Source: a virus. From it: DNA of 64,000 nucleotides. The stretch lies in the IMG/VR virus record IMGVR_UViG_3300033402_000312. One strand, written 5' to 3'. The translations under genes were made by a program, and so were the position numbers. Shown piece by piece: positions 4,171 through 14,548 of the stretch. Positions within the stretch are counted from its first letter, which is position 1. Each line of letters opens with the position of its first letter. Below the pieces are notes generated by a model. It made no database searches. It worked only from the letters and a program-made list of their open reading frames with translations, and had not been told where the DNA came from.

Positions 4171-4259
4171 GCGAGCGTGGCGGAATCGGCAGACGCGCAA
4201 CGTTGAGAACGTTGTGGGGTTTTTATCCCGTAGGAGTTCGAGTCTCCTCGTTCGCACCA
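4171..4259 (+). tRNA. tRNA-Leu(GAG), class II
   Basis: Acceptor GCGAGCG/CGTTCGC+A+CCA; D arm TGGCGGAATCGGCAGACGC; anticodon loop TTGAGAA; long variable arm; T loop GGAGTTCGAGTCTCC. Confidence 0.8.
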
Positions 4260-5060: not shown

Positions 5061-5147
5061 GCGGCTATGGCGGAACTGGCAGACGCACTAGCTTGAGGTG
5101 CTAGCGGTAGCGATACCGTGGAGGTTCGAGTCCTCTTAGCCGCACCA
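5061..5147 (+). tRNA. tRNA-Leu(GAG) second copy, class II
   Basis: GCGGCTA...TAGCCGC+A+CCA; anticodon arm CTAGC-TTGAGGT-GCTAG; T loop GAGGTTCGAGTCCTC. Confidence 0.75.
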
Positions 5148-12333: not shown

Positions 12334-12936
12334 ATGGAACAGTACCCAGAGATACCCGGCGCGAAGAAGGCTCCCCTCGGGGAGAGGTGCATCGCGTTCT
12401 ACAAGTACGACGGCTCCAACCTCCGGTGGGAATGGAGCAAGAAGCGCGGCTGGCACAAGTTCGGCACGCGGACGGAGCTTTTCGCCCCGGAGCACCCGCT
12501 GTGGGGGCAGGCACTCCCCCTTTGGCGCGGGATCGCGCACGACGTCAAGGATCGCATTTACGCGAGCGACTGGCGGTTCCGCAACATACAGCGGATCACG
12601 GCGTTCACCGAGTTCTTCGGGCCTTCGAGCTTCGCCGGGACGCATGACGAGAAGGAGCCGAAGGAGCTTAGGCTCATCGACGTCTGGCTGTACAAGCACG
12701 GCAGGATGCCGCCCCGGTGGTTCGTGGACACGTTCAGCGACGCGTCGTACGCGGCGCAGGTGGTCTACGAGGGCAACCTGAGCACGGAGTTCATCCGCGA
12801 CGTGCGGGCGGGGAAGTACCCGGTGTGGGAAGGCGTCGTGGCGAAGGGCGACGACTGGATGGCGAAGATCAAGACCGAGGCGTACATGCTGAAGCTCAAG
12901 GAGGTCTTCGGCCTGGACTGGGAAGGGTTCGCGTAA
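12334..12936 (+). CDS. minimal ATP-dependent RNA/DNA ligase-like nucleotidyltransferase (Rnl2-type NTase domain only)
   Basis: Motif I KYDGSN (K24), motif III FTEFFG, motif IV WEGVVAKGD, motif V AKIKTEAY; ~200 aa, no C-terminal domain. Confidence 0.65.
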   Translation: MEQYPEIPGAKKAPLGERCIAFYKYDGSNLRWEWSKKRGWHKFGTRTELFAPEHPLWGQALPLWRGIAHDVKDRIYASDWRFRNIQRITAFTEFFGPSSFAGTHDEKEPKELRLIDVWLYKHGRMPPRWFVDTFSDASYAAQVVYEGNLSTEFIRDVRAGKYPVWEGVVAKGDDWMAKIKTEAYMLKLKEVFGLDWEGFA

Positions 12937-12940
12937 TAAA

Positions 12941-13017
12941 CGGGGCGTAGCGCAGCCTGGTAGCGCGTCTGCTTCGGGAGCAGAAGGCCGTTGGTTCGAA
13001 TCCAATCGCCCCGACCA
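12941..13017 (+). tRNA. tRNA-Pro(CGG)
   Basis: CGGGGCG TAGCGCAGCCTGGTAGCGC...CGCCCCG+A+CCA; anticodon arm TCTGC-TTCGGGA-GCAGA, identical loop to E. coli proK. Confidence 0.85.
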
Positions 13018-13041
13018 ATATTATGCATAGCGAGGTGCATT

Positions 13042-13702
13042 ATGATTCTGGAAATAAGAGCGGCGGAAGGCGGCGAGGACGCGAGGCTCCTCGTCGAGGA
13101 CCAGACGACGATCTACGCCCGCGTGGCGTCGCGGAGGGGTCTTTGAGTTCGAGGTCGTGGAGCAGCGCCAGGGCTTCGCGGTCCTGAGGATCACGGGGCC
13201 GGGCGCGAAGGAGGCGTTCGCGAATGAGTCGGGAGGTCATCGCTGGCAGAGGGTCCCGCCGACTGAGAAGCGCGGCAGGGTGCAGACCTCGACGGTCACC
13301 GTCGCGGTGTTCGACGAACCCGAGGCTTCGGAGTTCAAGGTCAGAGACGCCGACCTCGCATGGGAGACCATGCGGAGCGGGGGCAAGGGCGGGCAGAACG
13401 TGAACAAGGTCGAGACTGCCGTCCGGCTGACCCACAGGCCGACCGGGCTGACAGTGCGGTGCGAGTCCGAGCGGTCGCAGTCGCGCAACAGGCAGACAGC
13501 GCTCGCCACCCTGACCGCCCGGCTGGCTGCGGCGCGGCGGGAGCAGCAGCAGGACGCGCAGGCGACCGACCGGAGGCGGCAGATCGGCACGGGGCAGCGC
13601 GGGGACAAGCGCCGGACGATCCGCGAAAGGGACGGGGTCGTGACAGACCACGTCCTGAACCGGAAATGGCGATACGCGGACTATGTGCGCGGGCTGTGGT
13701 AA
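13042..13702 (+). CDS. N-terminally truncated class I peptide-chain release factor homolog (domains 2-4) with programmed +1 frameshift at 13141-13146
   Basis: Frame 1: ATG 13042 (RBS GAGGTG), [34 protein letters not shown] then CTT TGA; frame 2 continues [13 protein letters not shown]...[28 protein letters not shown]...[38 protein letters not shown] (PxT-like PPT and GGQ motifs, RF1-like); GGAGG 3 nt upstream of CUU UGA as in prfB. Confidence 0.7.
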
Positions 13703-13712
13703 GATAGCTTAT

Positions 13713-13788
13713 GGCGGTGTAGCTCAGTTGGAGAGCGCGGGTCTCATAAACCCGAGGTCGCTGGTTCGTTCCCCAGCCACCGCTACCA
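13713..13788 (+). tRNA. tRNA with CAT anticodon (Met elongator or Ile2/lysidine type)
   Basis: GGCGGTG TAGCTCAGTTGGAGAGC...CACCGCT+A+CCA; anticodon arm CGGGT-CTCATAA-ACCCG; T arm GGTCGCTGGTTCGTTCCCCAGC resembles ileX. Confidence 0.75.
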
Positions 13789-13804: not shown

Positions 13805-13966
13805 ATGTCTCATCCTGTAGTTTTTGATTGTCCACACTGTGGTCGGAGTTTAGAAGCATCATCAGAAACAGTAGTTCGCTGTCCACATTGTAGGGTAGCC
13901 ATCGATATTCTGACAGACGGAGTGAAGATAGACCCATTTGCAGAAAAATTTCATATTGGCGAGTGA
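13805..13966 (+). CDS. small zinc-ribbon protein (53 aa)
   Basis: ATG 13805; two CPHC pairs (FDCPHCGRS...VRCPHCRVA); start of an AT-rich island containing the next HNH gene. Confidence 0.4.
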   Translation: MSHPVVFDCPHCGRSLEASSETVVRCPHCRVAIDILTDGVKIDPFAEKFHIGE

Positions 13967-13999: not shown

Positions 14000-14548
14000 T
14001 TGACTTTCAAGAAGCATAAGTGGAGAATACCACTTATGCGACAAACAGTTTCAGTCACATGCAATTTTTGTGGCAATCAACTAGATAAACTTGCGAAGTC
14101 CGTAAAATGGGCGAGAGCTAACGGGCAAAAAAATTTTTACTGTAACATGGTCTGTATGCAGTCTGGCCGAACCTTAGGTCGGGTAAAACCGGGTACGGCT
14201 TTGCGTAGTCTTTTATGTCGGTATAAACAGACTGCAAGACGGAGAAAAGTTTCGTTTACGTTAACGGACACTGAATTTGGGAGCTTGGTTACCCAGTCAT
14301 GCTACTATTGCGGCGATGCTCCAGCACAAGTAGCAAGAGCCAAATCTGGCGAGACCTTAAAGTATAACGGGATAGACCGGGTTAATAACTTGTTCGGGTA
14401 TTCTACTGACAACAGCGTGAGTTGTTGCGGTACATGCAATCGTTGGAAATCATCCATGTCATCGGAGGATTTCTTGGCTCAAATCAGGAAAATTTTTGAG
14501 AGGACAACTATGGTCACCAACCTTAGCAAGACCGCCCATACGGCGTAA
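14000..14548 (+). CDS. HNH homing endonuclease
   Basis: CYYCGDAP...YNGIDRVNNLFGYSTDNSVSCCGTCNRWKS HNH core; N-terminal CxxC; low-GC island. Confidence 0.8.
   Translation: MTFKKHKWRIPLMRQTVSVTCNFCGNQLDKLAKSVKWARANGQKNFYCNMVCMQSGRTLGRVKPGTALRSLLCRYKQTARRRKVSFTLTDTEFGSLVTQSCYYCGDAPAQVARAKSGETLKYNGIDRVNNLFGYSTDNSVSCCGTCNRWKSSMSSEDFLAQIRKIFERTTMVTNLSKTAHTA

Follow-up and report, generated by a model that had tools for sequence, protein, structure and literature searches.

The window analysed here, meaning the whole stretch of DNA studied, comprises 64,000 nucleotides of the IMG/VR virus record IMGVR_UViG_3300033402_000312, and our subject is a release-factor gene that lies at positions 13,042 to 13,702, between a tRNA-Pro gene and a tRNA-Met gene. 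A sequence-only reading made earlier had described it as a phage-encoded, truncated class I release factor (RF) with a programmed +1 frameshift of the prfB type, located inside a tRNA island. Its phage origin and its place in the island both stand: the window encodes DNA polymerase A, AAA ATPases, a NADAR domain protein and 16 tRNAs, and relatives of the gene occur on IMG/VR contigs and on the huge-phage contigs of Al-Shayeb et al. The reading that we favour, and hold to be probable, is that of a genuine gene belonging to a very large phage, made by prfB-type programmed +1 frameshifting and most likely encoding an RF1-type terminator.

Anatomy of the gene and its shift site

The frame opened by the ATG is preceded by a Shine-Dalgarno-like (SD-like) ribosome-binding site, in keeping with the good ribosome-binding site named in the earlier reading. 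This frame meets a stop early, at codon 35, where TGA (13144-13146) directly follows CTT (13141-13143). The local sequence at the shift site, CGG AGG GGT CTT TGA G, can be divided into GGAGG-GGT-CTT-TGA-G, with the SD-like element 3 nt before CUU UGA, and agrees with the prfB-like site that had been described. The cassette GGAGGGGTCTTTGA (13133-13146) is the sole match in the 64-kb window to GGAGGNNNCTTTRR, for which 0.10 matches are expected. When one base is skipped after CTT during translation, the first open reading frame (ORF0) and the +1-frame part give a fused product of 219 aa, whose features are collected in Table 1.

Only 24 nt (13018-13041) and 10 nt (13703-13712) separate the gene from its two tRNA neighbours. 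Because the tRNA-Pro gene ends 24 nt before the ATG, domain 1 of a release factor cannot sit upstream of position 13042. And because the gene is packed between two tRNA genes, the ends of its mRNA may be formed by tRNA processing, as in a tRNA-punctuated transcript.

Table 1 Positions of the release-factor gene, its parts and neighbouring features in the window.
Feature	Position	Strand	Remarks
tRNA-Leu(GAG), two copies	4171-4259 and 5061-5147	+	Isoacceptor reading the slippery CUU; same tRNA island
200-aa ORF	12334..12936	+	Predicted ATP-dependent RNA ligase nucleotidyltransferase fold, K24-x-D26-G27; unit membership uncertain
tRNA-Pro(CGG)	12941..13017	+	Ends 24 nt before the ATG of the RF gene
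Ribosome-binding site, SD-like GAGGTG	13032..13037	+	Serves the ATG at 13042; read from sequence
ORF0, 34 codons + TGA	13042..13146	+	Strand 1 and helix alpha5 of RF domain 2
GG-E-D helix tip (alpha5, RF domain 2)	13069-13080	+	Within ORF0
Putative frameshift stimulator, internal SD-like GGAGG	13133..13137	+	Followed by the 3-nt spacer GGT, 13138-13140
Shift site CTT TGA G	13141..13147	+	P-site slippery Leu codon, 0-frame stop, next base
+1-frame part, 185 codons + TAA (13700-13702)	13145..13702	+	Rest of domain 2, domains 3 and 4
PPT tripeptide	13256-13264	+	P72-P73-T74 of the fused product
GGQ motif	13388-13396	+	G116-G117-Q118 of the fused product
tRNA-Met(CAT)	13713..13788	+	Begins 10 nt past the stop codon of the RF gene

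The product and its relatives

The fused product matches the Pfam PCRF profile over its last part only (profile positions 102-194 of 194) and contains a complete Pfam RF-1 domain. Against the NCBIfam models it scores 219 bits for RF1, 140 for RF2, 105 for PrfH and 46 for ArfB, all under the cut-offs: the curated RF1 equivalog models TIGR00019 and NF001859 gave 219.2 bits against a required 400 and 216.2 against 423.25, and the PrfH model TIGR03072 gave 104.9 against 166.65, with a match spanning profile positions 1-198 of 200. The ArfB model matches residues 97-130 only, and the product possesses domains 2 and 4, unlike ArfB and ICT1. All 28 family members tested returned the same order, RF1 above RF2, PrfH and then ArfB. 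A sequence search of the PDB also placed RF1 first (E 3e-48; T. maritima and E. coli RF1), and the alignment crosses the junction without a gap (rrgl and efevve, on its two sides, against RKGWNLEVAE).

These searches uphold the placing in the release-factor family that had been proposed from the letters alone, with the start of domain 2 in the frame that ends at CUU UGA and an RF1-like core in the +1 frame. The tripeptide PPT is found at the PxT position of codon recognition, and GGQ, the motif of peptidyl-tRNA hydrolysis, lies further downstream. The lack of domain 1 was likewise borne out, as the RF1 profile match begins only at position 106-115.

An AlphaFold model built on uninterrupted relatives (predicted local distance difference test, pLDDT, 82.7) has a strand at residues 2-9 and a helix at 12-31; the junction falls between this helix and a strand at 35-42, and the pLDDT exceeds 90 there. 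With this model, Foldseek returned ribosome-bound RF1 at ranks 1-21 (template modelling (TM) score 0.84, 41% identity), while RF2 ranked lower and PrfH (9mor_A, TM 0.69) appeared at rank 50. Since Pfam, the NCBIfam ranking, the PDB alignment and the fold search agree, the predicted product is an RF1-type class I release factor of domains 2-4, without domain 1.

Compared with bacterial RF1, the product is missing about 25 C-terminal residues in addition to domain 1. The family has a 6-residue deletion in domain 2 and an Asp where bacterial RF1 has its conserved Glu, at the tip of helix alpha5 (GG-E-D versus GG-D/E-E in RF1), and in many members Gln replaces the His before Thr-Ser, the equivalent of His193. 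The roles of the alpha5 tip, His193 and similar positions in stop reading are known from RF1-ribosome structures. The decoding elements are mostly kept in the family, namely PPT or PPN and the equivalents of Gln181 and Thr194. Most members carry PPT as their tripeptide; about 14 have PPN and 3 have SPT, while the loop has disappeared from about 8. Loss of the PxT loop was seen in L001 (LR745208), L200, L219/L229, L245, L260 and L259 (e.g. HRVQRTSNGRIHSS); the GGQ is kept, and so is the frameshift where present.

Relatives were collected by tblastn on GenBank phages, which found huge-phage genomes of Al-Shayeb et al., and by scans of IMG/VR, which added a further 80 loci, the contigs reaching 618 kb in length. 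In total, 89 related loci were analysed, mostly on huge-phage contigs. Scans of metagenome and genome contigs were swamped by ordinary bacterial RF1 (GKGGQNVN pattern) and added only L037, L038 and L287. An early, loose DNA pattern scan of viral contigs returned chiefly chance matches and was not used.

A +1 shift at the same codon is required in 66 of the 89 loci, representing 60 distinct sequences, and this codon sits 31 codons past an E-I-R motif (32 in one locus). Counted over the distinct sequences, the site reads CTT TGA in 50, CTT TAG in 8, TTT TAG in one and CTT TAA in one, so that the slippery codon is CTT in 59 and the site stop is UAG in nine. The stop is followed by C in 41, G in 14, A in 4 and T in 1. 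GGAGG or GGGGG stands exactly 3 nt before the slippery codon in 44 of the 60, and a 4-mer SD-like core of any kind does so in 54. LR745208 (485 kb), whose protein is about 46% identical, carries an identical stretch of 15 nt, CGGAGGGGTCTTTGA, at this codon, and across the 60 distinct relatives the nucleotide cassette is conserved while its flanks diverge to 45% identity. This conservation of the recoding cassette, the chief argument for a programmed shift, is directly observed, as are the anatomy, homology and fold of the gene. Uninterrupted relatives, which nest among the frameshifted ones (e.g. P0152 with L193, 76%), provide a codon control: they encode R-R-G-L by CGG CGT GGA TTA, CGA AGA GGT CTC or CGC CGC GGG GTC, and the SD-like element is absent at the shift position.

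These data bear on the idea of an artefact or a dead gene (an indel or a pseudogene), or else of two products, a 34-aa peptide and a 181-aa protein started at GTG 13157, which we regard as extremely improbable. Gene callers do split the gene into ORFs of 34 and 181 aa, and the GTG lies four codons into the +1 ORF. Against this, the gene with its shift agrees across four independent records: it is identical in the ENA assembly, the Joint Genome Institute (JGI) assembly and one Logan run, and in a second Logan run, where the contig breaks off within the gene, the first 370 nt match, shift site included. The earlier reading had named absence of the site from close relatives as the mark of an indel, and the shift is instead shared at the same codon by the 60 distinct relatives. 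Both ORFs are homologous to contiguous parts of RF1, and the T run, only 3 long, is too short for transcriptional slippage or a homopolymer error. As for a separate second protein, no conserved start codon exists for the +1 ORF, 13 of the 60 having none within 50 codons, and ORF2 alone would be without strand 1 and helix alpha5 of domain 2. No significant downstream or local RNA structure was found at the shift site (fold z -1.33), and an Rfam search returned tRNAs only, with no other RNA family near the site; the prfB frameshift needs no downstream RNA structure. Given the codon control, the lack of a second start and of RNA structure, and the independent assemblies, the sequences argue that error, pseudogene and two-protein readings can be excluded for practical purposes.

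Several variants were observed among the relatives. The uninterrupted L275, on a contig of Logan run SRR11595448, reads CGG AGG GGC TTT AGT, the cassette with a single T removed; it looks like a 'repaired' shift, with RRGFS where frameshifted members give RRGL-S. In L200, L207/L276, L212/L277 and L264 (IMG/VR contigs 3300037993_001242, 3300028920_002946, 3300037067_027616 and 3300027754_000229), an in-frame stop occupies the shift codon and the gene continues in frame 0. These loci read CTC TGA C, CTA TGA C, TAT TAG A and GGC TGA A, without an SD-like element, and could get past the stop by readthrough or by a Leu-to-Leu hop. The 20-kb flanks of L207 and L212 revealed neither genome-wide recoding nor a suppressor tRNA. 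A frameshifted member with CTT TGA C, L287 (CAKZKQ010000706.1), lies on a 30-kb contig binned in a 'proteobacterium' metagenome-assembled genome (MAG), and this is probably a phage contig. RF1-like ORFs on three contigs of Gottesmanbacteria MAGs (L285/L350/L355) have only 9-18 codons before E-I-R, hence no domain 1.

Domain-1-less RF1-like genes in a single frame were also seen in L002-L005 (LR745206, LR756501, LR756504 and LR756502) and in about nine low-GC IMG/VR loci. These genes, from huge phages of low GC (26-41%), hold 1-2 TGA codons aligned with conserved Trp (e.g. ASIWL), a pattern that suggests TGA=Trp coding in those phages; the paper of Al-Shayeb et al. (PMC7162821) treats TAG reassignment only.

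Surroundings, expression and role

The window uses the standard genetic code. Genome-wide stop recoding was considered and rejected, because long genes with GC-biased third codon positions (GC3) end in TGA, TAG and TAA alike. In 49 confident window ORFs the stops are TAA 21, TAG 15 and TGA 13; the TAG share of 31% is unusually large for a genome of 58% GC and high relative to bacterial stop usage. With TAG used so often, a phage would have cause to carry RF1-type activity as well as tRNAs. In many relatives, too, the RF gene is found within a tRNA island. In the window, the island has four tRNA-Pro genes around the RF gene, a fifth just upstream, and three tRNA-Met genes. A patch of lower GC just after the tRNA-Met gene contains a 53-aa CxxC...CxxC zinc-ribbon ORF (13805-13966, plus strand) and a Cys-rich ORF of 182 aa (14000-14548, plus strand; CNFCG, CYYCG and CCGTCNRWK), the latter resembling an HNH-type homing endonuclease and having no Pfam match.

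For the 200-aa ORF upstream of the tRNA-Pro gene, no match was obtained in Pfam, NCBIfam, PHROGs, a phmmer search of the PDB or a PDB profile search. With its AlphaFold2 model (pLDDT 88.5), the top Foldseek hits were T4 Rnl1, TbREL1, T4 Rnl2 and a Naegleria ligase, and the K-x-D-G at residues 24-27 is invariant. The ORF adjoins the RF gene, on one side or the other, in 9 of 88 related loci, most of the available flanks being only 1.5 kb long. It has 765 metagenome homologues, nearly all unannotated, and an identical protein is on record on an 894 kb contig. The model points to a stand-alone RNA-ligase-like domain, which is a possible functional partner of the release factor. No RtcB domain was found in the 10 ORFs scanned near the RF gene.

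By analogy with prfB, we infer the following steps of expression. Ribosomes would start at 13042, read 34 codons and then pause, with the CUU-bound peptidyl-tRNA-Leu occupying the P site and UGA standing in the A site, while the internal GGAGG, 3 nt upstream, would pair with the anti-SD sequence of 16S rRNA. During slow termination the tRNA would re-pair from CUU to UUU, and decoding would resume in the +1 frame (GAG UUC ...) up to the TAA at 13700. The slip would compete with termination: stopping at the 0-frame UGA would yield a dead-end peptide of 34 aa, and because normal termination gives only this peptide, more factor would be made when termination at the site stop is slow. The UGA in the window would be read by host RF2, and the factor itself would most likely supply RF1-type release at UAA and UAG for a phage that has its own tRNA set and frequent TAG. 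The efficiency of the shift, this regulatory logic and the biochemical specificity of the factor are likewise what we infer for a product that may serve, as had been suggested earlier, in termination or rescue.

Several points weigh against this reading. Four of the 60 frameshifted members are without any SD-like element. A PPT-type product should not, judging by its motif, read its own UGA site; a PxT of RF1 type excludes G at the second stop position. Furthermore, UGA and UAG have been exchanged at least six times across the family, since UAG members nest among UGA members (L189 is 80% identical to the window gene, and L219 87% to L198), and no matching change in the decoding motif accompanies the switches. 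Across the family we saw no link between the site stop (UGA versus UAG) and the tripeptide or the His/Gln position. The paradox noted from the sequence, an RF1 motif together with a UGA site, is therefore real and now wider, as the family uses UGA, UAG or UAA. The stop-codon specificity of the factor also appears not to be assured, because of the alpha5-tip Asp, the Gln in place of His193 and the loss of the PxT loop in about 8 members.

Because an RF1-type tripeptide should not read UGA, the autoregulatory loop of prfB would not apply as such, and the classical loop in which the product terminates at its own stop is not supported for the phage family. The site may sense a partner factor, general termination capacity or an omnipotent product. 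With the last of these, true autoregulation would be restored: a factor of relaxed specificity would read all three stops and terminate at its own site, reproducing the prfB loop. The freely varying site stop would suit this idea, repeated switches being neutral for an omnipotent factor, and so would the changes in the decoding head (alpha5-tip Glu to Asp, His to Gln, the 6-residue deletion in domain 2 and the PPN variants). Most members nevertheless have the canonical RF1-type PxT, and the predominance of UGA (50 of 60) would follow just as well from its being the slowest stop. We know of no natural omnipotent RF1 of bacterial type, and we judge such autoregulation to be decidedly unlikely.

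The main rival role, with a somewhat better though still low probability, is that of a rescue factor like PrfH or ArfB, freeing ribosomes stalled by tRNA or rRNA damage (e.g. by anticodon nucleases or ribotoxins) together with the adjacent ligase, the frameshift switching it on when termination or elongation is disturbed. The product is without domain 1 like PrfH, whose models match it over their full length, its gene sits in a tRNA island, and the PxT loop is lost in about 8 family members. The ORF next to it, with its RNA-ligase fold and invariant KxDG, stays beside the RF gene in a sub-clade though the side changes, and PrfH-RtcB has been argued to be a release system coupled to RNA repair (Burroughs and Aravind, PMC6514570). 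On the other side, the decoding elements (PPT/PPN and the Gln181 and Thr194 equivalents) are largely kept, and the product is far closer to RF1 than to PrfH, in bit score (219 versus 105) as in fold rank (1-21 versus 50). The ligase adjoins in few loci, 9 of 88, although most flanks span 1.5 kb; it is not RtcB and could merely serve tRNA repair, like T4 Rnl1. Because the decoding elements are conserved and the similarity to RF1 is much closer, we favour the role of a terminator over that of a rescue factor.

A broader proposal, which we put forward as a speculation with a low chance of being right, is that the fixed stop codon in an RF-like gene acts as a sensor of termination failure. The stop, whether UGA, UAG or UAA, would be bypassed mostly by the +1 shift and in a few members by readthrough or a hop, and the factor would be produced only under poor termination in the infected cell, for example when release factors or tRNAs are crippled by host defence or phage shut-off. 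In some lineages, factor and ligase would then form a rescue-repair module like PrfH-RtcB2.

Comparison with known systems

Bacterial RF1 (prfA) is the best match in sequence and structure, with PxT, GGQ and complete domains 2, 3 and 4 common to both. The phage product differs in being without domain 1, in its shorter C-terminus, in the deletion in domain 2 and in the Asp at the alpha5 tip, and it scores below the cut-off. Release factors encoded alongside tRNAs in huge phages have been published (Al-Shayeb 2020, PMC7162821), several of these genomes carrying members of the present RF1-like family, and RF1 has been reported in TGA-recoded Jade phages (Borges 2021 preprint, 10.1101/2021.08.26.457843). 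The word 'frameshift' occurs 0 times in PMC7162821 and in 10.1101/2021.08.26.457843, and the missing domain 1 goes unmentioned in them. Because the window phage uses the standard code, the rationale of a 'code-change module', as in TGA-recoded phages, is inapplicable to it. JGI labels the 3' ORFs 'peptide chain release factor 1', and annotation stands to gain, as genes of the family are now split into two ORFs or called fragments of that name.

PrfH (RFH), with RtcB2, is a class I paralogue that is also without domain 1 and beside an RNA ligase gene, as here. The phage family differs in keeping the PxT loop, in having as neighbour an ATP-dependent ligase fold of the Rnl type rather than RtcB, and in showing this adjacency in a sub-clade only. 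To our knowledge, PrfH genes are not frameshifted. Among viruses, the closest precedent comes from a giant amoeba virus, whose eRF1-type gene encodes a termination factor that likewise needs recoding, by readthrough and frameshifting, at stop codons (Atkins et al. 2016, PMC5009743). That gene is of the eukaryotic/archaeal eRF1 type, belongs to a eukaryotic virus and uses different signals, with no SD-CUU-stop cassette. A frameshifted phage RF1-like gene was not described in the full-text literature searched, whose coverage leaves out most subscription journals. What is new here is that a +1 cassette of the prfB type occurs in huge phages, in a family of RF1-type genes without domain 1.

The closest likeness at the shift site itself is with prfB, which in E. 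coli reads AGG GGG UAU CUU UGA C. The SD-like element, the 3-nt spacer, the CUU and the in-frame stop are shared, a C follows the stop in most phage members too, the +1 frame encodes the remainder of a class I release factor in both, and in some lineages the shift has been lost repeatedly (PMC12421855). The differences concern the gene and the position. prfB is bacterial and encodes RF2 (SPF), with the site at codon 26 in domain 1, whereas the gene described here is RF1-like (PxT, here PPT), is found in phages, and has the site at codon 35, in domain 2 (about residue 145 of E. coli RF1). The product of prfB reads its own TGA site, which the phage product probably cannot do with its UGA.

In 8,164 bacterial prfB motifs the stop is TGA in 98.6%, TAA in the rest and never TAG, and for prfA no evidence of programmed frameshifting was found in more than 12,000 bacterial genomes (Prince et al. 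2025, PMC12421855); in the RECODE data described with PRFect, +1 sites of the CUU-stop kind all come from prfB (PMC10885494). Because both the gene and the position of the site differ from those of prfB, an independent origin of the phage cassette is the simplest reading. The textbook example of autoregulatory recoding is the frameshift of prfB, and the phage family suggests that in the cells they infect, huge phages adjust or rescue translation termination. Beside prfB, it offers a natural experiment on what such a cassette senses, be it its own product, a partner factor or general termination capacity.

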